From Nannocystis pusilla (lineage in GTDB: Bacteria > Myxococcota_A > Polyangia > Nannocystales > Nannocystaceae): 64,000 bases of DNA. The notes under the pieces are model-generated. The model did not search any database. It saw nothing but the letters and a program-made list of their open reading frames with translations, and was not told where the DNA came from. Numbering within the stretch: the first letter of the stretch is position 1; each line of letters begins with the position of its first letter. Where the stretch lies: NCBI RefSeq assembly GCF_026626665.1, contig NZ_JAPNKE010000002.1, positions 3,757,168 to 3,821,167 on the forward strand. The letters are read 5' to 3'. Positions 38,128-48,783 of this stretch are shown one piece after another. The translations under genes were made by a program, and so were the position numbers.

Positions 38128-39255
38128 TCACATGGGGATCGGCACCAGGTCGGCCGCGAAGCGGAAGATGAGGTACTGGTGGTCGGGGTTGCCGCCGCCG
38201 CCCGGCCACAGGAACGGGCTCTGCGGCGGCTTCACGTTGGGCGGATCCCAGTTGAACCACATCCACTTCGCCTCCTCCGGCATGTCCATCGGGCACACCA
38301 GCGGGAACTCGTTGCCGGCCATCGGCCCGCCGTTGTACGGCGTCGTGTTGGGCTCGCCGAACGCGACCGCGCCGTACTGCGTGCCGACCTCGTCGACCCA
38401 GCCCACGCTGGTGGTGTTCGGGTCGAGCGCGCCCTGGTTGCACTTGACGATGTGGTCGTTGATGACCTGCAAGGACGGCCCGCCGCTGCCGGGCTGGTAG
38501 TCGACCCCGGTCGCGCACACCTCCCAGCCCTCGGTGCCGGTGAACACGTCCTCGCCGAAGTTGCCGCCGCCGTCCTTGCGGCGGAACCGGGCCAGCACGC
38601 CCTGCGTCGTCGACGAGTCGGCCCAGGCGATGACGTAGAGGAAGCTGGCGTTGTCGGCCTCCTCGTACGGCACCACGTACTTCTCCGGCCCCTCGCCGCA
38701 GTTGAAGATCTGCCCCGCGGTGGTGTTCTCGATCCCGCCCCAGTACATCGAGATGTTGTCGTCGGTGCCGTAGGCGAACCCGTAGGCGTTGTCGGCGGTG
38801 ATCACGATCTCGATGTCGCTGGCCGGCTCCGGCTCCCCGGTCGTGTCCGTGGTCTCGCCCGTCGTCGTCGTCGTCGTCTCGCCCGTCGTCGTCGTCGTCG
38901 TCGCGTCCGTCGTGCTCGTCGTCGTCCCGGGCTCGCTGGTGCTGGTGGTCGTCGTGTCCGAGGTCGTCGTGTCGACGCCCTGCGTCGTCGTCGAAGTCGC
39001 GTCGGTGGTCGTCAGACCGGTGCCCTCGGTGCCGACCGTGCTGGTCCCGCCGGTCGGATCGTCGGTCGACTGCGTCGTCGTCGTCGGGTTCACGTTGCCG
39101 GTCGTCGGATCGGTCGCGGCGCCCGTCATCGTCGACGTCTCGGTCGCCGACCCGCTGCTCGGATCGCCGGAGTCCGGACACCCGCTCGACAGCAGCGACA
39201 TCACGGCGATCGGGAGCGACGATTGAACTACTTTCAAGGAGCAGATTCTCAACAT
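38128..39255 (-). CDS. lipoprotein with long Thr-rich linker
   Basis: MLRICSLKVVQSSLPIAVMSLLSSGCPD, then ~120 aa of T/D/G-rich linker and a C-terminal globular domain. Confidence 0.65.
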   Translation of the reverse strand: MLRICSLKVVQSSLPIAVMSLLSSGCPDSGDPSSGSATETSTMTGAATDPTTGNVNPTTTTQSTDDPTGGTSTVGTEGTGLTTTDATSTTTQGVDTTTSDTTTTSTSEPGTTTSTTDATTTTTTGETTTTTTGETTDTTGEPEPASDIEIVITADNAYGFAYGTDDNISMYWGGIENTTAGQIFNCGEGPEKYVVPYEEADNASFLYVIAWADSSTTQGVLARFRRKDGGGNFGEDVFTGTEGWEVCATGVDYQPGSGGPSLQVINDHIVKCNQGALDPNTTSVGWVDEVGTQYGAVAFGEPNTTPYNGGPMAGNEFPLVCPMDMPEEAKWMWFNWDPPNVKPPQSPFLWPGGGGNPDHQYLIFRFAADLVPIPM

Positions 39256-39600: not shown

Positions 39601-40858
39601 TCACATCCCGCCGCCGGCCGCTTGCATGAGCTGCTCCACCTCGGAGTAGCGGACCACGCCGGCCACGGTCGTGTCCTTCTTCGCCATCGGCCGCCACACG
39701 AAGTCGGGGTGGCGGCGCTTCGACTTGCCGACCCACTCGCCGCCGATGACGCGGCCGACGCCATCGAGTTCGACGATGTAGTCGTAGACCTCGGTGAACG
39801 TGAAGGTCGCCACGTTGTCGACCAGCTGCTGGTTATAGCCGGGGCCCGCCTCGTTGATCCAGTACACCTCGGTGCGGACGCGCCGCAGCTCGACGGCGTT
39901 CGGGTTGAAGCGGTACTGCGAGCCGCCGCTGCTGATCATGTCGTTCGCGGTCGCGCCCGAGACCTGCTCGTTGCGCGTCACCTTGTAGCCGACCACCGGG
40001 TGGTTCCAGACCTCGCGGTCGTAGGTGCGGTCGAACACGAACGACTCGCCGCGGAGCCCGAGCATGTTGGTCAGCGCCACGTGGAAGCTGCCGGCGTTGG
40101 TGTCCTGGCACGCCTGGCTCTTGATGCTGCCCGACGAGTTGCAGCGCAGCGACATGAAGCGGACCGACAGGCCCTCGGTGTACGCCAGGCTGATGAGCGC
40201 CTTGAGGTCGGAGATCTCGAACCGCACCCCGTTGAAGGTGACGCCCTGCTTGGGCTCGCGCTCCATGATGGCCGCCGGCGCCCACGCGTGGCAGATGCCC
40301 ATCCACGTCTCGATGCAGCGCCCGCGCGACTCGCCGCGCCGGCGGCCGCACGCGGCCGCCCACGTTGGAGCAGTCGGAGTCGTACCTGCACGCCTTGGTG
40401 CCGCCGATGCTGCCGACGCCGAAGCGGTTGGAGATGACCGTCCCGACCCCCTTGCGGCCGAACGCGGCCCCGTACTTCTCGGCCGGCGAGCGGATCTTCG
40501 AGCCCGCCCAGCGGTAGTTGATCGAGTCGTTGTAGGTCGGCCAGTAGTAGCCGGGCCACGGCACGCGCTTGGCCCAGCCCGAGGCCGGCAGCTCGTCGAG
40601 CTCGAAGTTGAAGTCCTTGCTGAGGAGGCGGGGGTCGTCCGCCTTCGTCCAACCCTCGCGGTAGAGCAACGCCTCCTCCTGCTCCTCGGAGAGCGCCGGC
40701 TCGTCTTCCTCGGCGGCGGCGAGCTCGTCGGTCGCGTCGACCGGCTCGTCACAGGCGGACAGCCCCGAGCAGAGCATGCCGAGCGCCAGCGCGGCGCGGA
40801 AGGTGAGACGGCCCGCGAGACGGCTCGCGGAGGATGAGGATGGAATCGTGAATGACAT
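39601..40858 (-). CDS. lipoprotein with distant papain-like (C1-like) cysteine peptidase signatures (frameshift ~40360)
   Basis: Lipobox MLCSGLSAC. After the frameshift (GGCGGCC GCG run) the sequence reads ...GICHAWAPAA (Cys-Trp-Ala like the papain nucleophile motif), NHPVVGYKV (His motif) and YWINEAG. Confidence 0.45.
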
Positions 40859-41440
40859 GAGACACCTCGAAAATGGTCTGACCGATTCGCACGTTCTCCG
40901 TCGTCGTCAGCGGCAGGATCGCCGCTGGGTCCTCGGGAGGGACATCGAGGCGGAGCGGTCGTCACGCAGCGTCGAACGACAGCCTCGCATGATTCTCCTC
41001 TCGTCTCGTGGCGAGAGCCCGCCGAAGCGGTCCCCTGCGTGAGCGCGATTCACAGGACCGACGCGTCGATCCGGACAATGACGGCAGTGCGACGGCTTCC
41101 GCGTCGGCTCGCCGAGACGACAGGCGAGGACGGCGGGACATGGGTCGCACGGAGGAGACCGGCGGGGGTTCCATCCCGTCGAGGTCAGCGTGACGGTCGC
41201 CGGTGAAGGTTCGACGAGTCGCGGGGCCCTGCCCTCGCGGGGGTCGTCGCCGAGTCGTCGAAGCGCGCTCGATCTGCCGCTCGAGCGCTGCGCCTGGGCG
41301 CGTGGACTCGGTGAATAAGTCCGAGGTGCGGCGGCGAGGCGAGCCTCGCCGCTCGCAGCGGAGCGCTCGAGGGACCTCGAGCGCTCCGCTTCAGGCGGGG
41401 CCGGCGGGCGCGATCGTCCTGCCGGTCCGCCGTGGTCGGC

Positions 41441-42706
41441 TCACTTGCCGACGTTCTTGCCGACGCCCTTGCCGACGCCCTTGCCGACGCCCTGCGTCAC
41501 GAGCATCGCGCACTCCGAGCCGACCACGTACACCAGCTCCTGCTCGAACTGGCCCGGGGTGACCGGCGTGGGCTCCTTGCCGAAGCCCTGATCGAAGCCC
41601 GGCTTGCCCCAGCGCTTGCCGAACCCCGGCTTGCCGATGGTCTGGTCCTTGCCGAAGCCCTGGCCGTAGTCCTTGCCGAAGTGCTGGTCGACGTCCTTGC
41701 CGAAGCCCTGGTCGACGTCCTTGCCGAAGCCCTGCTGGTGCTCCTTGCCGAAGCCCTGCTGGTGCTCCTTGCCGAAGCCCTGGTCGTAGTCCTTGCCGAA
41801 GCCCTGCTGGCCGTAGCCCTGCTGGCCGTAGCCCTGCTGATTACCCCAGCGCTTGGTGAAGCCCGGCTTGCCGATCGTCTGGTCGAGCTCCTGCAGGATC
41901 TCCTGCTCGAGATCCTGGTCGATGTTCTTGCCGACGTGCTTGCCGATCGTCTGATCGAGCTCCTGCTCGATGTCCTGCAGCAGGTCCTGCTCGAGGTCCT
42001 GGCCGATGTTCTGGTCGAGGTCCTGCACGAGCTCCTGCACGAGCTCCTGCTCGACCGTCTTGCCGATGTTCTGCTCGAGGCCCTGCTCGAGCTGCTGCAT
42101 GATGTCCTGCTCCAGCTCCTGCTCGAGCTTGCCGACGTTCTTGCCGATGTTCTTGCCGACGTCCTTGCCGATGGTCTGGTCGAGCTCCTGCAGCAGCTCC
42201 TCCTCGACCTTGCCGACCTCCTTGCCGATGCCCTGGCCCATGTCGCCCTTGCCGAAGCCCTGGCCCATGTCGCCCTTGCCGAAGCCCTGGCCGAGGTCCA
42301 CGCCCTGACCGGTCGGTTTGCCCGGCATCACGCCCTGATCGGGATAGACGTGCTTGCCGATGTCTTTGCCGATGCCCTGGCCGACATCCTGGCCGATGCC
42401 CTGATTGCCGCCCCAGCGGTCACAGATCGCCACGCCGGCGTCGGAGCACGCGCTGCGGCAGCGGTTGGCGTCGCCGGAGTCCGCGGCCACGTCGCACGCG
42501 GCGAGGCACTCCTCGGCGTCGAGGATCGTGCACGAACGGTTCTGCGTCAGCTGCTCCACCTCGGCCAGGCAGGTCTCGAGCTCGAGCAGTTCGTTCTGAC
42601 CGTAGCCCTGTTGGCTACCTCCCCATCGAGCTTCGTCCGACGCCGTCGCGGTGACGGGCATCGAGAACGCGAGCGCGGGGAACAACACAAGAATGGTACG
42701 CAACAT
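41441..42706 (-). CDS. secreted Gly/Gln/Lys/Asp-rich repeat protein (GrrA/OscA-like candidate RiPP precursor)
   Basis: Signal peptide MLRTILVLFPALAFSMPVTATA, then an N-terminal Cys-rich segment. After that come >300 aa of short repeats: QGFGKD/E ~8 times, QGFGKG twice, QGYGQQ twice, RWGNQ, RWGKP, HFGKD, IGKNVGK/IGKDVGK and acidic ELxQ spacers. GC3 is high throughout. Confidence 0.7.
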   Translation of the reverse strand: MLRTILVLFPALAFSMPVTATASDEARWGGSQQGYGQNELLELETCLAEVEQLTQNRSCTILDAEECLAACDVAADSGDANRCRSACSDAGVAICDRWGGNQGIGQDVGQGIGKDIGKHVYPDQGVMPGKPTGQGVDLGQGFGKGDMGQGFGKGDMGQGIGKEVGKVEEELLQELDQTIGKDVGKNIGKNVGKLEQELEQDIMQQLEQGLEQNIGKTVEQELVQELVQDLDQNIGQDLEQDLLQDIEQELDQTIGKHVGKNIDQDLEQEILQELDQTIGKPGFTKRWGNQQGYGQQGYGQQGFGKDYDQGFGKEHQQGFGKEHQQGFGKDVDQGFGKDVDQHFGKDYGQGFGKDQTIGKPGFGKRWGKPGFDQGFGKEPTPVTPGQFEQELVYVVGSECAMLVTQGVGKGVGKGVGKNVGK

Positions 42707-44136
42707 GGGAGGGTTTCCTTTCTCTGTCTCGAAAGCAGCCGGCGGGTCAATCCCGCCTGAGCTCTTCCGGACGAACTATTGGTTGGTAGTCCCGGGTAGG
42801 CAAAGCTACGGTGTGGTGAAGCGCAAACGACGAAGACGTCCCATTCCGCGATACCCCCCTCTACGAGGCCTTGCAGCCGCGAATTCAGGGAATTGCCGGG
42901 GTCCCGCGGACCCGGCGGGGCGCGCGAGGAACCGCTCGAACAGGCACGATTTCCGCCGCCGCGGCCGCCTCGCCCACTGCTATCAATGTCGTCCGCCTGC
43001 CGCGGCCGTCCGCCGCGCCGGAGTCGTCCGCGCCTGCGCGATATCGAATGCCGCGAGCGATCGATCGCGCGAATATGACAGTACATCGCCCCGGCGATGT
43101 ATCTGACAGCGCACCCGACATTGCCGCGACCGGGCGACGATATCACGAACGGTTTATCAAACATCGCAGCGGCCCGCCCTGCCCGCGGCCCGTCTTGTCC
43201 TTCGCCTCATGCCGCGCGCCCCATGCCCGTCGTGCGCTCGCGCGGCGGACTCTCGATATCCGCCTGGTCGTCACCTCGCTGGGGCTCGCCTCGCGCGACC
43301 GTCGTCCGTCGCAAGCCTGCAGCTGCCCGTCCAGGGTCGTGCGCGTGAACCCGAGCCCTGCTCGCGTCACGCCGGCCGCCTCGTCGCCGCTCCCACCGGC
43401 CAGCCGCCGGGAGGAGCCGTGCGCGGCAGCCGACGTCGCCGGCGCGTCCCGCCCGACCGCGCACCCGCGAGCGAACGCCTGCGAGCGCGACGGCGCCGGT
43501 CGTCCGGCGTCGTCACGCCGAGCCCGACGCGCTCGCTACCTCGCCGCGCGCTACCGATGAGCCGCGTACCGCTTCGACATCCGCCGGCCCGGGTCGCGGC
43601 GCGCAGCGCCGCAGCCACCCCTCGCAGCGAAGATGTCGCCCGGGACACGTCCAATCAACATGACCTTATGCACATGTCCTTCCGGACATTCATACGCCCG
43701 CGGCCGACCGAGCGCCCACGCCGATGCGAGCAGCGCTCACGGACGCAGCGGACCGCGCTAGCGCCCGCGCCGCGAGCGTCGCGCTCGCACGAGCCACGGC
43801 AACGCCAGCAGCAGCCCGCCCGCGCCGTCATCCTGCTGTGAGTCTGCATCGTCGCCGGTAGCGACAATCGCCGCGACCGCCCGGCTCCGCCCCCGCGCAG
43901 GTCCGCATCGTCCATGACGGCGATTCATCACTCCGTACTGCCGACAATCGCTCCACCCGCCGCCCCGCCATCCCCGACCGCCGCGATTCATCCTGGGACG
44001 TCTCCCCTCGCATCCTACCGGCGCGCTCTGCCGCCCTCGGACGCGACCATGCACGTCAGACCTGTCCCATGAGCCAGCGTCCCCTGCGCGGACGAGCGAG
44101 CCCGCCGGCGCGCCATCGGCCGACCTGCCCTCTCGC

Positions 44137-44337
44137 TCAGCCCTCCGCCGCGCCCGGCCCTTCATGCTCCCAGCGCACGATCGGCCGCCCGTGCAGCGGC
44201 AGGCGCGTCCCGCGGTTCTCGCATTGCGGGCAGCGCAGCGCCTCCGGCGTCGGCATCGGCGCGCACGCGCTGCCGCGGCCGGCGGTCACCTGCACTTCGG
44301 GACAGCCGCACCGCGGGCACCTCGGCGCCTCGCTCAC
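44137..44337 (-). CDS. 66-aa zinc-ribbon protein (CPRCGC...CPQCE), translationally coupled to rSAM/SPASM gene
   Basis: The GTG start overlaps the TGA stop of the upstream gene (GTGA). GC3 is high. Two CxxC pairs lie 30 residues apart. Confidence 0.6.
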   Translation of the reverse strand: MSEAPRCPRCGCPEVQVTAGRGSACAPMPTPEALRCPQCENRGTRLPLHGRPIVRWEHEGPGAAEG

Positions 44338-45287
44338 GGCGACCCCGAGCGCTTGCGCAGGCGCTCGCGCAGCTCGGCCGGCACCGACTCGTGGCGCCGT
44401 GGGTCGGACAGCGGGCGCACCAGGTCCTCCGGCGCGATCAGCCACGGCGGCTCGGGCACCTCGTCGAGCTCGTAGAACCCGCCGCAGAAGCACGCGTGCG
44501 GGCACGACGCGCACACCGGCTTGCGGACCCGGCGCTCGGCCAGGTACTGCGCCAGGTTGACCGTCTCGTTGTTGACGAACGCCATGTGGCGCTCGAGCTT
44601 GCCGAGGTCGCCCTGCATCAGCGCCTCGTGGCCCGGCATGAAGCAGAACGGCAGGTTGATGATCTGCAGCTTCATCCGCGCCTGCCAGGCGTCGATCACC
44701 GCGCTCAGGGCCGCCGCCGCGCGGGCCGTGTCGGGTGCCAGCATCGCGGTCGCCCGCCCGAACGGCGTCAGAATTGATAGTTCACCCAGCGCAGCCCGAG
44801 CGACCACGCCAGCGCCGTGATGTCCGCCAGCTGCCCCTCGTTGTGCTTCGTGATCGTCACGTTGAGGCCGAGCTCGACCCCGCGCGGGGCCAGGCGGACC
44901 GCGTTGCGCACCCCCGCCAGCGTCTGCTCGAAGGCCTCCGCGACCCCGACGTTCTGCGCGTGCGTGCGGGCGTCGGCCCCGTGCACGCTGAACAGCAGCG
45001 ACGACAGCCCCGAGTTGACCAGGCGGGCCGCGAACGCCTCGTACGCGCACAGCCGGCCGTTCGTCGTCACGTTGATCGCCCGGTAGCCGAGCGCGCGCGT
45101 GGCGAATCAAGCCCAGCAGGTCCGGGTGCAGCGTCGGCTCGCCGCCGTCGATGTCGAGCAGCTCCACCCCTTGCTTGCGGTAGTGCGCCAGCTGCTCGCG
45201 CAGGCGCTCGCCGTCGCCGTGGAGCTGCGTGCGCGTGCCCACCGCGCAGAAGCTGCAGTGGTTGTTGCACGCGTAGGTCGCGTTCAT
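44334..45287 (-). CDS. radical SAM/SPASM-domain protein (GrrM/3-residue-cyclophane-forming-enzyme-like candidate), two apparent frameshifts (~45085, ~44775)
   Basis: CNNHCSFC is the CxxxCxxC rSAM cluster. The middle segment (...LGYRAINVTTNGRLCAYEAFAAR...GADARTH...) lies in the frame of ORF 44768..45070. The C-terminal SPASM motif is CASCPHACFCGG. Confidence 0.75.
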   Translation of the reverse strand: MNATYACNNHCSFCAVGTRTQLHGDGERLREQLAHYRKQGVELLDIDGGEPTLHPDLLGLIRHARARLPGDQRDDERPAVRVRGVRGPPGQLGAVVAAVQRARGRRPHARAERRGRGGLRADAGGGAQRGPPGPARGRARPQRDDHEAQRGAAGGHHGAGVVARAALGELSILTPFGRATAMLAPDTARAAAALSAVIDAWQARMKLQIINLPFCFMPGHEALMQGDLGKLERHMAFVNNETVNLAQYLAERRVRKPVCASCPHACFCGGFYELDEVPEPPWLIAPEDLVRPLSDPRRHESVPAELRERLRKRSGSP

Positions 45288-46799
45288 CACCAGCTTGCGC
45301 GGCCCCTGCGACGCGCGCACCCGCTGCTCGAACGTCCAGCGGAACTTCTCCAGCAGCTCGGCCGGCACCGTCGCCCCGGTCGGCGCCCGCTGGAACCGCG
45401 GCCCCCAGTCGCCGTCCTCCGGCGGCGGCGCCAGCGGCAGCGACCGGGCCAGCCGCGTGCCCGGCAGCGGCGTCGCGAACTGCACCGCCGGCCACGCCTT
45501 GAACCTGTCCCACAGATCCAGCGCGAAGCTCAGCGTCTGATTGATCTCCGCCGCCGACTCGCCCGGCTGACCGATGATGTAGTGGATCATCAGCGGCACG
45601 CCGGCCGCCGCCGCCGACTCCGCCGCGCGCACGATCGCCGCCAGGTCGAGCCGCTTGCCGACCACCTCGTCGACCACCCGCTGCGATCCGCTCTCGGCGC
45701 TGACGCTGAGCGTCGTGATCCGCCCGCGCATCGCCTGCAGGTGCCGCGGCTCGAGGTAATCGGCGCGCAGCCCGTTCGGCAGCTCGAAGCGCAGGCCCAG
45801 CGCCTGGATGTCCCCCAGGACATGATCGAAGTGCGCCGGGTGGACGTTGATCAGCTCGTCGAGCACGAACACCCGCTCGGCCCCGTGCTCGCGCGCCAGC
45901 GCCGTCAACAGCTGCGCCAGCGACGTCCGCGAGTGCCGCCGCTGCGTCTTCGGCCGGCCCGCCGCCACGTCCGGGTTCGAGCTGCAGTGCGCGCACTGGA
46001 ACGGGCACCCGCGGCTCGTCACCGCCGGCAGCGTGCGGCCGTCGATCGGGAACGCCCAGCCGCCGCGGCCGAGCCCGCGGACCACCGCCGCGCGGAACTC
46101 GTGGTGCGCCTCGAGGTCGACTTTGGACCATGCCGGAACGGGCAGGTCCTCGAGGACAGGTTGCTCCCCGCGGTGGAGCCCGCGCGGCGCCGGCCCGCCG
46201 GTCAAGTACGCCTGCAGCAGCGCCGGCACCGTCACCTCGGCCTCGAACTGCACGTACGCGTCGGCCTCCGGGTAGCTGGCGAGCAGCTGCGGCGCCGCCA
46301 CGTAGTGCTGCCCCGACTGGTAGCAGTCGGCCAGCACGATCGGCACCGCCGCCCCGTGGCGCGCCCGCAGCCCGGCGAGGAGGTCGGCGAGGAGGTCGTC
46401 GCGCGCCGGCGGCCGGTGGAACGGCGTGACCGCCACCACGATCGCCACGGCCGAGCCTGGGCACGCCGCCAGAGTCGCCGCGACCGTCGCCCCCAGGTGC
46501 GCCCGCCCGTCGCTGCGCCACGTCATTCCCGACGCCGCGTGACGCACCTCGCCCGGCGAGTCGTCCGCCTCGTTCGCGCCTCGCAGCCCGCTCGCCCGCC
46601 CGTCCGCCGCGTCTACGCCCCGCGGCGTCGTCAGCCTCGCCGGCAGCGCGTACGCGTCGACCAGGTCGCACTCGATCCCTCGCGCCTCGAGCACCGCTGC
46701 CAGCTGCACCGCCCCGAGGTCGACGAAGTACGGGTAGTCGATGAAGTCCCGCGCCACCGACACGGGCGGATGGACGACGAGGACGCGGCCGGGGCGCAC
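45288..46799 (-). CDS. B12-binding-domain radical SAM protein
   Basis: An N-terminal B12-binding domain (RVLVVHPPVS...DLVDAYAL) precedes an rSAM core with CPFQCAHCS. A GTG start at ~46799 is in frame. No stop separates it from the downstream rSAM/SPASM gene, so the 3' boundary is uncertain. Confidence 0.7.
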
Positions 46800-46857
46800 G
46801 GCCGGCGACGTTAGCACGCTTGCGGCCTGCGCGGGGCGCCGGGTACATTGCCCCGGA

Positions 46858-48783
46858 ATGGACGCTCTCCCCGCCACCGCGGTGCAGCACGAAGAGGCGG
46901 CGCACGAGCGGCGCAACTGGGTCCGGCTGACGTTCGACTGCAACGACCGCTGCGTGTTCTGCCTCGACGCCCACACGCACGACGGCACCAACCGCGACCG
47001 CGACGAGATCAAGGCCCAGATCCTCGACGGTCGCCGGCGCGGCGCCACCCGCCTCATCCTCTCCGGCGGCGAGCCCACCATTCACCCCAACTTCGTCGAC
47101 TTCGTGCGTCTCGGGCGGCGCGCCGGCTATCGCAAGATCCAGACCGTCACCAACGGCCGCATGTTCGCCTATCCGGCCTTCCTGCGGGCCGCCCTCGACG
47201 CCGGCCTCAGCGAGATCACGTTCTCGATCCACGGCCCCAACGCCCGGATCCACGACGCCCTCGTCGGCACCAAGGGCGCCTTCGACGAGGAGGTCAAGGG
47301 CCTGCAGGGCGCGCTCGCCGACGGTCGGCCGGTCGTCAACATCGACGTCTGCGTCAACCGCGGCAACGTCAAGCAGCTGCCCGAGCTCATGGCCACCTTC
47401 ACCGCCATGGGCGTGCGCGAGTTCGACCTGCTGCACGTCATCCCGTTCGGGCGCGCCTACAGCGAGGGCCGCGAGATCCTCTTCTACGACCTCGAGGCCA
47501 TGCGGCCCTACCTGCTGGAGGCCTTCGCCTACGCGCGCAAGCCCGGCATCCACGTCTGGCTCAACCGGTTCCCGCCGCAGCACCTCGAGGGCTTCGAGGA
47601 CCTGATCCAGGACCCGCACAAGCTGATCGAGGAGGTCCGCGGGCGCAAGGAGGAGTACGCGCTGCTGCTCGAGCACGACATCCCGCTCGACTGCCGCGCC
47701 CCCGAGCGCTGCAAGCACTGCTACTTGCAGCCGCTGTGCGACCGCCTCGACGACGTCCGGGCCGACCTCGCCGGCCAGGCCTTCGCGGTCCTGCGCGTCG
47801 ACGCCGGCGCCGACCGGCACGCCCCCGTCGCCTACGGCGGGGACCCGGCCAGCCGCCAGCACGCCGCTGCCCGCCTGCGCCGCGTCCTCGCCGAGCGGGC
47901 CCTCGCCGCCGGTCCCTCGGGACATGTCCCCGAGGACAGCGAAGACGCGTGGGCCGGCACCGCCGACGAGGCCGCCGCCGCGATGGCCGAGGCCCGCGCG
48001 GCAGCGCCGCTCGCCCCGCCGCGCCGAATCCGCCTGCCGCTGCTCGGCGCCGGCCCCTCGCTCCCGGCCGCCCCCGCGCGCCCGCGCCTCGACGCCCGCG
48101 CCCTCGCGGCCGCCGCCAAGCCCCGCGCGCTGTGGCTGCTCGCGCCCGACCTCGCGGCCGCCGAGGCGCTCGCCGCCGAGTTCCCCGACGTCCCCGAGCT
48201 CGAGCTCGAGCTGGCCGACCCGGCCGCCCTCCTCGCCCGCCTTTCGGACATGTCCGCCACATCATGTCCCGAAGGCCAGCCGATCACGATCGCCGGCAAG
48301 CGCCTCGCCCGCGTCGTCGTCGCCGACCCGGCCGCCGCGGCCGCCCTCCTCGACCTGAACCTCGACCTCGACGTCGTCCTCCTGCTCTCGCGCGCCGCCG
48401 AGCCGTGGCTGCTCGCGCTGGACCGCGCCCCCCCGCGCCTGGTCCTGCGCCAGCCCGCGCGCGAGCGTCTGACCGAGTCCGCCGAGCTCGACCTCGACCT
48501 CGTGCCCTTCTTCGCCGCCTTCCGCCACCCCGTCCCCGTCGAGGCCGTGCCCGCCTGCGTCCTCGGCCGCCCGCCGCGCGAGCGCCCCTCGGTGTTCGAC
48601 GCCGCCCAGCTCGGCCCCGACGGCGGCCTCGAGATCTTCCGCTACGCCCGCCGCTTCATCGACGACGGCTTCCACGTCAAGAGCCTGCGCTGCAAGACAT
48701 GTTCGTACGACCATGGCTGCAAGGGCATGCACATCAACTACGTGCGCGCCCACGGCTTCGCCGCCATGCGACCTGTCCCCTGA
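46858..48783 (+). CDS. radical SAM protein with ~300-aa C-terminal extension ending in a Cys-rich motif
   Basis: WVRLTFDCNDRCVFCLD is the CxxxCxxC motif, then GGEPT and a MoaA/PqqE-like core. The C-terminus reads ...LRCKTCSYDHGCKGMHINYV. The gene is divergent from the B12-rSAM operon. Confidence 0.8.
   Translation: MDALPATAVQHEEAAHERRNWVRLTFDCNDRCVFCLDAHTHDGTNRDRDEIKAQILDGRRRGATRLILSGGEPTIHPNFVDFVRLGRRAGYRKIQTVTNGRMFAYPAFLRAALDAGLSEITFSIHGPNARIHDALVGTKGAFDEEVKGLQGALADGRPVVNIDVCVNRGNVKQLPELMATFTAMGVREFDLLHVIPFGRAYSEGREILFYDLEAMRPYLLEAFAYARKPGIHVWLNRFPPQHLEGFEDLIQDPHKLIEEVRGRKEEYALLLEHDIPLDCRAPERCKHCYLQPLCDRLDDVRADLAGQAFAVLRVDAGADRHAPVAYGGDPASRQHAAARLRRVLAERALAAGPSGHVPEDSEDAWAGTADEAAAAMAEARAAAPLAPPRRIRLPLLGAGPSLPAAPARPRLDARALAAAAKPRALWLLAPDLAAAEALAAEFPDVPELELELADPAALLARLSDMSATSCPEGQPITIAGKRLARVVVADPAAAAALLDLNLDLDVVLLLSRAAEPWLLALDRAPPRLVLRQPARERLTESAELDLDLVPFFAAFRHPVPVEAVPACVLGRPPRERPSVFDAAQLGPDGGLEIFRYARRFIDDGFHVKSLRCKTCSYDHGCKGMHINYVRAHGFAAMRPVP

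Follow-up and report, generated by a model that had tools for sequence, protein, structure and literature searches.

Transglutaminases join glutamine side chains to lysine side chains, and disorder is the main determinant of glutamine reactivity. The precursors of the cornified envelope of vertebrate skin (involucrin, loricrin and the small proline-rich (SPRR) proteins), which are substrates of TGM1/3/5, carry reactive Gln and Lys in their repeats: Gln/Glu/Leu-rich helical repeats in involucrin, Gly loops broken by aromatic or aliphatic residues in loricrin, and Pro-rich repeats with Lys and Gln in the SPRR proteins. In the fibrin gamma chain, a helical rod aligns flexible Gln and nearby Lys segments, between which factor XIIIa installs reciprocal intermolecular isopeptide bonds. 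In bacteria, Bacillus subtilis Tgl (acting on GerQ and SafA) and the Streptomyces mobaraensis transglutaminase, MTG (acting on SSTI, DAIP and papain inhibitor), each have specific secreted or coat proteins that they cross-link in the course of development. To our knowledge, the substrates of these two bacterial enzymes are not repeat proteins made of Gln/Lys units, and we know of no cornified-envelope, fibrin, Bacillus or Streptomyces substrate that is encoded next to its enzyme. Here, we analyze a stretch of 64,000 nt from Nannocystis pusilla (contig NZ_JAPNKE010000002.1, positions 3,757,168 to 3,821,167; hereafter the window), in which a gene for a Gln- and Lys-rich repeat protein (41441..42706, minus strand) is followed by a gene for a transglutaminase of the Phytophthora GP42 type (PF16683).

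The cornified-envelope precursors and fibrin among eukaryotes, and the Bacillus Tgl and Streptomyces MTG substrates among bacteria, are the closest functional analogues of this repeat protein, and none of them is homologous to it. Its ELEQ region resembles involucrin, its QGFGK units resemble loricrin, and the PGKKP and PGQEP repeats of its short homologues resemble the SPRR proteins; however, there is no sequence homology, the animal enzymes belong to the animal transglutaminase fold family and not to the GP42 type, and the Nannocystis system is bacterial, with enzyme and putative substrate in adjacent genes. By analogy, fibrin cross-linking is a possible model for a helix flanked by QGxGK arrays, although it involves one site per chain compared with about 30 in the repeat protein. 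Regarding Tgl and MTG, their enzyme families are unrelated to PF16683. We consider it somewhat probable, from sequence comparison, that the repeat protein is an exported substrate whose Gln and Lys residues are joined by the neighboring transglutaminase into a covalently cross-linked material, and likely that the two proteins have some functional link. Transglutaminase-mediated protein cross-linking and the enzyme family itself are known; the dedicated and co-encoded repeat substrate would, on balance, be what is new.

A repeat gene paired with a transglutaminase gene

The repeat gene is an uninterrupted frame of 421 codons plus stop, with G+C fractions of 0.69, 0.35 and 0.94 at codon positions 1, 2 and 3 and an AAAGGA ribosome-binding site about 10 nt before its ATG. 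In a sliding frame plot, a single coding phase is confined to the interval 41441-42706, and the coding signal was not found in the ~500 nt downstream or the ~1.45 kb upstream. An antisense open reading frame (ORF; 41432-42760, plus strand) was rejected as a mirror artefact of the repeats, its third-codon positions falling on the lowest-GC phase. Scans of the protein against Pfam and NCBIfam (E <= 10) gave sub-threshold, unrelated matches only (DUF445, trigger factor and similar).

The regularity of the repeats was quantified by comparing motif counts in the mature protein with the mean of 2000 residue shuffles. The motif Phi-G-K occurs 29 times (1.0 expected), QG[FIY]G[KQ] 15 times (0.04 expected), RWG four times (0.01 expected), [IV]GKx[IV]GK nine times (0.0 expected) and [LIV]xQ[ED] 12 times (0.75 expected). 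Gly precedes 30 of the 31 Lys, and four residues before Lys stands Gln (18 of 31) or Lys (10 of 31), which defines an elementary unit [Q/K]-[G/T/N]-[F/I/V]-G-K; across nine orthologues, Gln occupies this position for 139 of 243 Lys. At the DNA level, Tandem Repeats Finder recovered units of 24 nt (7.1 copies), 27 nt (2.7 copies), 15 nt (three copies) and 12 nt (4.2 copies), as well as 60/72-nt units within the DNA of the acidic part of the protein. Relative to the other proteins of the window, the composition is strongly skewed: Gln rises from 2.9 to 12.6% (4.3-fold) and Lys from 2.0 to 7.4% (3.8-fold), and Arg falls from 8.6 to 1.9% (4.5-fold). Because Lys is enriched and Arg depleted in a genome of 72% GC, Lys itself, and not positive charge, appears to be under selection.

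The gene that follows on the same strand, 582 nt downstream (39601..40858), encodes a lipoprotein of Pfam PF16683 ("transglutaminase elicitor"), the GP42-type transglutaminase family. In the window its frame is interrupted by a 2-nt deletion near 40348: tblastn matches split over two frames, and DNA alignment places the deletion there relative to all orthologues. Once the frame is repaired, the 419-aa protein matches PF16683 with E = 4.7e-91 (305.7 bits, the cut-off being 25; 348 of the 361 profile positions covered) and the structure of Phytophthora sojae GP42 (PDB 3tw5) with E = 2e-67 over 330 residues. It has intact 419-aa orthologues at ~95% identity (P0005 and that of locus L097). The Cys-His pair is present in the motif GICHAW, which aligns with GISHAW of the crystallized 3tw5 chain (Ser at that position), and C190, H191, D253 and N255 are invariant among 14 relatives. 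This Cys-His pair is the unusual catalytic arrangement of GP42, a Ca2+-dependent transglutaminase according to the cited literature, and PF16683 belongs to the papain-like superfamily (PMC10318531). The neighbor is thus, by its sequence, a bona fide GP42 homologue. Like the cell-wall transglutaminase of P. sojae, it has the Cys-His pair and is predicted to be exported and cell-surface-associated; however, the likeness concerns the partner gene and not the repeat protein, no dedicated GP42 substrate gene has been described, and the bacterial enzyme is a lipoprotein. The lipobox is LSAC in the window, and all partner-type enzymes carry one (LSAC, LPAC, QPGC, TSAC or SPAC). PF16683 enzymes are numerous in Myxococcota, with 252 confirmed matches in one genome scan. 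In our literature search, the papers naming PF16683 all dealt with oomycetes or closely related plant-pathogen topics, and none was returned that ties transglutaminase to Nannocystis or to myxobacterial coats.

The pairing of the two genes is conserved. Of the 16 loci with enough sequence beyond the family member, 15 have a PF16683 gene as the next one downstream on that strand, these 15 being the window, 11 Nannocystis-type loci and three distant loci encoding short homologues. In the latter, the gaps are 148 nt (P0045, locus L007/L008, otherwise flanked by Mfd downstream and by an unrelated secreted protein), 77 nt (P0118, L091/L092, a short contig) and 86 nt (P0117, L094, at a contig end). 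The genes upstream of the repeat gene vary even within Nannocystis. Since the genes beyond the transglutaminase are syntenic within this genus, it is the three distant loci and this upstream variability that carry the linkage argument.

This pairing bears on a first alternative. The repeat protein might act in the envelope or matrix without any covalent modification, whether as an adhesive, as a Ca2+ binder or as a hydrogel-like material held by Phi-Gly contacts, its linkage to the transglutaminase being incidental or regulatory. An Asp/Glu-rich helix and aromatic-Gly repeats could indeed bind cations or self-associate, and the second N. exedens transglutaminase copy, like many PF16683 genes, has no partner; yet the pairing is kept in the unrelated context of L007 and in two distant lineages on short contigs, with gaps of 77-148 nt, and we regard this explanation as rather unlikely.

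Two further observations concern the surroundings of these enzymes. In Nannocystis, the gene next after the transglutaminase is always that of a Thr-rich lipoprotein (369 aa; 38131-39237, minus strand, in the window) without a Pfam or NCBIfam match, which is absent from the distant pair loci. Some distant PF16683 genes (~41-46% identity) are preceded by genes for lipoproteins with 32-41 Cys (L023, 2200-3099; L024, 2824-3822), which may be another type of partner.

Architecture and family of the repeat protein

The repeat protein starts with a predicted Sec (type I) signal peptide (residues 1-22; 42641..42706, minus strand, as are all segments of the protein given below), which reads MLRTILVLFPALAFSMPVTATA followed by SDEARWGG, with cleavage after ATA and without a lipobox. 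It has the expected n/h/c layout (MLR, a hydrophobic core of 15 residues, then ATA/S), a Kyte-Doolittle hydropathy of 1.7-2.5 across residues 1-18 and a near-invariant sequence across the family, from which we infer that the protein is exported. Together, this signal peptide and the lipobox of the enzyme are predicted to put both proteins outside the cytoplasm.

Next comes a Cys-rich helical N-domain (residues 40-96; 42419..42589) with C46, C59, C67, C71, C83, C87 and C95, including two CX3C motifs. These are seven of the eight Cys of the protein, the eighth being C399; C46, C59 and C71 are invariant family-wide, and C399 is nearly so (>=90%). A first Gly-rich array (residues 97-164; 42215..42418) contains RWGG, QGIGQ, QGIGK and three copies of GDMGQGFGK, and corresponds to the 27-nt tandem repeat. 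It is followed by an acidic region rich in Leu, Gln, Glu and Asp (residues 165-282; 41861..42214), with interspersed IGKxVGK units and the 60/72-nt DNA repeats. A second Gly-rich array (residues 283-378; 41573..41860), built from three QQGYG, seven xxxQGFGK octapeptides and IGKPGFGKRWGKPGF, is encoded by the 24-nt (7.1 copies) and 15-nt (three copies) repeats, and its copy number varies among species. The protein ends (41444..41572) with the motif ELVYVVGSEC399AML, whose conservation emerged from alignment with the short homologues, and with a tail of four (G/N)VGK units. In all these respects, an earlier note on this DNA, which had described a real gene for a protein with a signal peptide, a Cys-rich N-terminal segment, highly regular micro-repeats and acidic spacers, agrees with what we find, the signal peptide being read from its type I layout, the ATA/S site and its near-invariance, and the repeats standing out in the shuffling comparison.

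An AlphaFold2 model of the window protein, built on a shallow family alignment of 12 sequences and hence to be taken as a low-resolution picture, agrees with this layout. It places N-domain helices at residues 37-57, 64-77 and 80-87 with a predicted local distance difference test score (pLDDT) of 54-73, and one long helix at residues 160-278, over the acidic region, with a pLDDT of 64-86. Residues 96-155 and 278-392 are predicted to be disordered (pLDDT mostly <40), the first array scoring <45 over most of its length and the second ~35-39. In the model of a short homologue (P0047), only the helical N-domain and a C-terminal strand/helix element are moderately confident (pLDDT 65-79); this C-terminal element, with a pLDDT of ~73, is similar in confidence to the N-domain core, and the 45 residues in between are modeled as disordered. 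The C-terminal motif Phi-Phi-Phi-x-V-x-x-C-x-x-L/I-G is common to the distant short homologues. Taken with the conserved Cys, the P0047 model therefore suggests that a small disulfide-bonded domain is interrupted by the repeat region as one huge loop.

Such a domain raises the question of which part of the protein is functional. The Cys-rich domain could be the active element that binds, inhibits, chaperones or anchors the transglutaminase, in the manner of a trans-acting pro-domain or inhibitor, with the repeats as mere spacer or tether. It is consistent with this that family-wide conservation is found in the signal peptide, the core Cys and the C-terminal motif while the middle is replaced. 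In addition, the two CX3C motifs sit on the adjacent predicted helices 64-77 (C67-x3-C71) and 80-87 (C83-x3-C87), recalling alpha-hairpinin inhibitors, two of which, BWI-2c and Jug r 2, appear in the Foldseek top list for the P0047 model (target-normalized TM scores of 0.60-0.64, E = 6-9, over 27-28 columns of a low-confidence model). However, these matches are not significant, and Foldseek returned no significant match for this model in the PDB; the shortest family members lack the four CX3C Cys. Moreover, a spacer need not keep its Gln/Lys enrichment in every lineage, nor a single Lys context, and the expansion of the middle to ~300 residues in Nannocystis suggests a payload. We therefore hold this explanation to be unlikely as a replacement for that of a cross-linking substrate, although a docking domain and substrate loops are compatible and the two ideas are not exclusive.

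Regarding the family, a word-indexed search of 5.8 billion proteins returned four homologues (from two Nannocystis isolates and two metagenomes), and HMMER, run on 1.84 billion cluster representatives, contributed a few true relatives of 129-203 aa (P0045, P0047, P0055, P0062, P0063 and P0098), to which P0117-P0119 were joined afterwards; with P0001-P0004, these proteins form the family set. Most of the 75 full-profile HMMER matches were discarded as compositional, covering only the acidic ELEQ region or being unrelated xGK/xGQ repeat proteins (e.g., P0044, P0054 and P0067). The family is recognized by the signal peptide MLRxI..PALAFxxP, (E)PRWGG, C46/C59/C71, the C-terminal motif Phi-Phi-Phi-x-V-x-x-C and a variable middle rich in Lys and Gln; the window protein has all of them, and the N-domain hidden Markov model matches it with E = 4e-36. 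The short relatives share the signal peptide (MLRxI..PALAFALP), (E)PRWGG, the core Cys pattern and a C-terminal LIFVxVExC..G, and carry in their middle, in place of QGFGK, repeats of PGKKP and PGQEP(V/I)(Y/F)PDQ that likewise bear Lys and Gln.

Orthologues are present in 11 other Nannocystis-type loci, locus scans having added those of N. punicea, N. exedens, N. radixulma, N. bainbridge and Nannocystis sp. RBIL2 (81% identical to the window protein) and a frameshifted copy in N. pusilla CP185339. Among the ten intact Nannocystis-type proteins (348-447 aa), the repeat copy number is variable, Cys and Arg are both constant at eight, and 94-100% of the Lys lie within Phi-G-K (e.g., 24/24, 28/28 and 30/32). 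A metagenome scan with the short-family alignment gave no confirmed locus; a second one, with the partner-type transglutaminases, gave nine loci, of which only L097, a close relative of the window whose contig begins inside the repeat gene, has the partner. The family is thus very rare, almost confined to Nannocystis, and undescribed. In N. pusilla CP185339.1 (L004, 8061-9408), the repeat gene is split over two frames (residues 1-222 and 223-417), owing either to a frameshift or to a sequencing error in the repeats; it is annotated as a 190-aa fragment and a 269-aa ORF on the opposite strand, an example of how this family can be mis-annotated.

The same comparison across lineages bears on a further explanation, in which the protein is a polyprotein cut after each Gly-Lys into short peptides (e.g., DVDQGFGK or NIGK) acting as signals, antimicrobials or nutrients, with the papain-fold neighbor as processing hydrolase. 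The strictly regular sites of Lys fit such a process, as does the place of PF16683 in the papain-like superfamily (PMC10318531), and Pfam gives a weak, sub-threshold match to a model of frog antimicrobial peptides (E = 0.021; 15.8 bits, the cut-off being 22). However, the units differ in sequence among species and lineages, which speaks against a specific bioactive peptide; GP42 is a Ca2+-dependent transglutaminase; and AlphaFold2 predicts for ~120 residues a long helix in which Lys-bounded short units are few. We consider this processing scheme improbable.

Proposed cross-linking of the repeats and the points against it

The substrate reading is favored because of the constant pairing, the Gln/Lys enrichment, the single flexible Lys context, the presence of both reaction partners in the repeat unit, the predicted disorder, the Lys- and Gln-bearing repeats that replace QGFGK in the short homologues, the catalytic Cys-His motif of the neighbor and the hairpin found between the two genes in all lineages. 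That composition is kept across lineages and sequence is not (QGFGK as opposed to PGKKP/PGQEP) follows what cross-linking chemistry would ask for. The lipobox of the enzyme, moreover, may place it in the same compartment as the repeat protein. In the mechanism that we propose, a small disulfide-bonded domain, made of the N-terminal helices and of a C-terminal strand with one conserved Cys, would bear a very large disordered insert, namely [Q/K]-G-Phi-G-K units, dozens in all, that flank an acidic helical rod on both sides. Both proteins would cross the cytoplasmic membrane, one by its signal peptide and the other by its lipobox; the gamma-carboxamide of an exposed Gln would then serve as acyl donor and the epsilon-amine of a Gly-flanked Lys as acceptor. 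The resulting epsilon-(gamma-glutamyl)lysine isopeptide bonds would join many copies of the protein, and possibly other envelope or matrix proteins, into an insoluble network. Its chains may be brought into register by the acidic helix, and folding, docking or anchoring would fall to the conserved Cys-rich domain. A more specific version of this scheme is that the ~30 Q-G-Phi-G-K units are cured by the dedicated GP42-type transglutaminase into a coat or matrix resembling the cornified envelope or, given that Gln and Lys stand at a fixed i/i+4 spacing through two glycines and each unit might thus close into a small ring, that each unit is closed as an intramolecular isopeptide macrolactam to give a "string of rings" polymer. 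In either form, this version is speculative and, in our estimation, quite unlikely.

Several points weigh against cross-linking. For mammalian transglutaminases, which are not of the GP42 type, Gly directly before the acceptor Lys is unfavorable, and a mere substrate needs no conserved folded domain. The pairing has its exceptions: P0055 (L095, a 1.4-kb contig) is followed by a different small gene, the sole case among the 16 loci; around 80 more distant PF16683 loci (the best ~80 were examined), mostly from Myxococcota and including that of a second N. radixulma paralogue, have no member of the repeat-protein family upstream; and one of the two N. exedens transglutaminase copies has lost its partner gene. 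Within Nannocystis, the synteny of the genes beyond the transglutaminase also lessens what the pairing says. Finally, the reading frame of the transglutaminase is not intact in the window, and this frameshift and that of the CP185339 repeat gene would, if real, make one partner dispensable.

The N. exedens loci lie at ~2.31 Mb of NETK01000001.1 (L006/L014) and, in the same genome, at ~0.27 Mb (L012), only one retaining the partner gene; in the second copy, a clean deletion extends from -11 of the partner ATG to 156 nt upstream of the transglutaminase, so that the conserved leader abuts the enzyme gene, in transposase-rich DNA.

With regard to the broken frame, the window contains at least three other such indels, which makes the 2-nt deletion in the transglutaminase gene probably an assembly error. 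The radical S-adenosylmethionine (SAM) cluster treated below contains a fusion gene that lacks 2 nt of a (CG)n run and, 328 nt further on, another 1 nt (~44772 and ~45100), so that 109 codons are read out of frame in an ORF that is still open; in the misread segment, it is still the third position of the true frame that takes the interspecies substitutions. We rejected a double frameshift, conserved or programmed, in this gene, since the orthologues are in frame and only the window lacks the 2 + 1 nt. A TetR gene at ~36500 also changes frame relative to its orthologues. This pattern suggests that the frame-breaking deletions of the window are assembly errors in GC-rich dinucleotide runs and not signs of pseudogenes.

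The noncoding DNA on both sides of the repeat gene is conserved in distinct ways. Right after its stop codon lie three GC-rich stem-loops (41328..41439, minus strand), the main one being a 15-bp hairpin at 41357-41390; the 124-nt region 41320-41443 has a minimum free energy of -86.6 kcal/mol (z = -7.1 against shuffles), and a scan for U-tract terminators (40700-43200) found no U-tract at the hairpin. A perfect GC-rich hairpin separates the repeat gene from the transglutaminase gene in every lineage; that of the distant loci (L007, L091 and L094) is unrelated in sequence, which points to a conserved intercistronic structure. Such an arrangement would fit an operon design of abundant substrate and scarce enzyme, the hairpin keeping expression of the former high and of the latter low.

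Upstream, the presumed promoter and 5' leader (42707..43040, minus strand) were delineated by aligning the Nannocystis loci. Ten of them share a nearly invariant stretch of 125 nt just before the ATG, and conserved blocks, including a repeated CTGTCA(G/T)AT motif, extend back to about -330. This DNA is more conserved than the coding sequence, the proteins of those Nannocystis being only ~47-80% identical, and the near-invariance of the leader suggests that expression of the repeat gene is tightly controlled. No match was obtained in a Rfam scan of 40800-44400 nor in a sigma-70 consensus scan of 40700-43200, and no sigma-54 -24/-12 element was seen by eye in the conserved leader. In Nannocystis sp. 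SCPEA4, a gene for an FHA/sigma-54 activator lies divergently upstream of the leader. The whole interval 42707-44160 (~1.45 kb) is devoid of coding-phase signal in the window, and relatives share with it only the first ~330 nt and a ~200-nt patch (43360-43556). Other Nannocystis hold inserted genes at this position: a phosphatidylinositol-specific phospholipase C (PI-PLC) gene; genes of 755 and 251 aa; or genes for a pyrroloquinoline quinone (PQQ)-repeat protein, an acetyltransferase and a sigma-54 activator.

The radical SAM neighborhood and the meaning of the pair

Beyond this interval, the window holds a cluster of radical SAM genes (44161-48783). It comprises a B12-binding radical SAM protein fused to an HxsC-like one (44340-46799, minus strand) and a divergent HxsC4-like radical SAM protein (46858-48783, plus strand), both with NCBIfam scores far below the cut-off, as well as a 63-aa zinc-ribbon-like ORF of the CxxC...CxxC type (44161-44340, minus strand) that overlaps the stop codon of the fusion gene and is translationally coupled to it. 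In relatives, a gene for a tetratricopeptide repeat (TPR) protein lies beyond the cluster.

With such neighbors, the repeat protein was at first taken for the precursor of a ribosomally synthesized and posttranslationally modified peptide (RiPP), the repeats being core peptides modified by the nearby radical SAM enzymes before or during export. Upstream of the repeat gene, the window does hold two radical SAM genes, in a cluster whose end is 1.46 kb from the ATG, and radical SAM genes are also near in L001, L004 and L005 (1.4-4.2 kb across the four loci, the window included); the repeats are, in addition, Gly-rich, as in some radical SAM-associated repeat peptides. However, this linkage is not conserved. 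Radical SAM genes are absent from the 10 kb upstream in Nannocystis sp. SCPEA4 (L002), from 5 kb on a metagenome contig (L003) and from the 9 kb of the distant locus L007, and the short L091 contig gave no radical SAM match. Where the cluster is present, two opposite-strand genes (N. pusilla JAIRAU01, L001), a PI-PLC gene (N. punicea, L005) or, in the window, the ~1.45 kb without coding signal separate it from the repeat gene. Moreover, the cluster owns a small ORF of its own, the 63-aa CxxC...CxxC one, and the repeat protein, with its 421 aa, its Sec signal peptide and its folded, Cys-rich domain, is atypical as a substrate of cytoplasmic radical SAM enzymes. No RiPP repeat family was matched in NCBIfam or Pfam at E <= 10.

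The same holds for GrrA/GRRM-type precursors, with which the earlier note had proposed a comparison. Likewise Gly-rich, built from short repeats and close to radical SAM genes in some genomes, the repeat protein differs from them in lacking a profile match (NCBIfam, E <= 10), in its signal peptide, in its 421 aa with a folded domain and in a radical SAM linkage that is not conserved. Synteny thus already largely refutes the RiPP reading, to which we give very little credence, and the radical SAM cluster is unrelated to the repeat gene. Of the earlier proposal of an exported, modified and polymer-like protein, that idea itself survives; it is the role of RiPP precursor served by the radical SAM genes that fails, by the refuting condition set in the note itself, the invariant neighbor being the transglutaminase. 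Gly-rich repeats near radical SAM genes are hence not necessarily RiPP precursors, and a tempting mis-assignment is here corrected.

If the repeat protein is indeed cross-linked by its neighbor, it would be a concrete natural substrate for the bacterial GP42-type transglutaminases, and the pair, as a simple genetically encoded combination of enzyme and repeat, might find use in protein hydrogels or in the tagging of Gln and Lys. Should the coat resembling the cornified envelope or the string of rings prove true, it would represent the first dedicated and co-encoded transglutaminase substrate in bacteria and offer a first way into the function of the bacterial enzymes related to the oomycete Pep-13 transglutaminase. 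For the myxobacteria themselves, a cross-linked repeat protein would mean that covalent protein cross-linking is one of their routes to an envelope, a matrix or a sporangiole wall.

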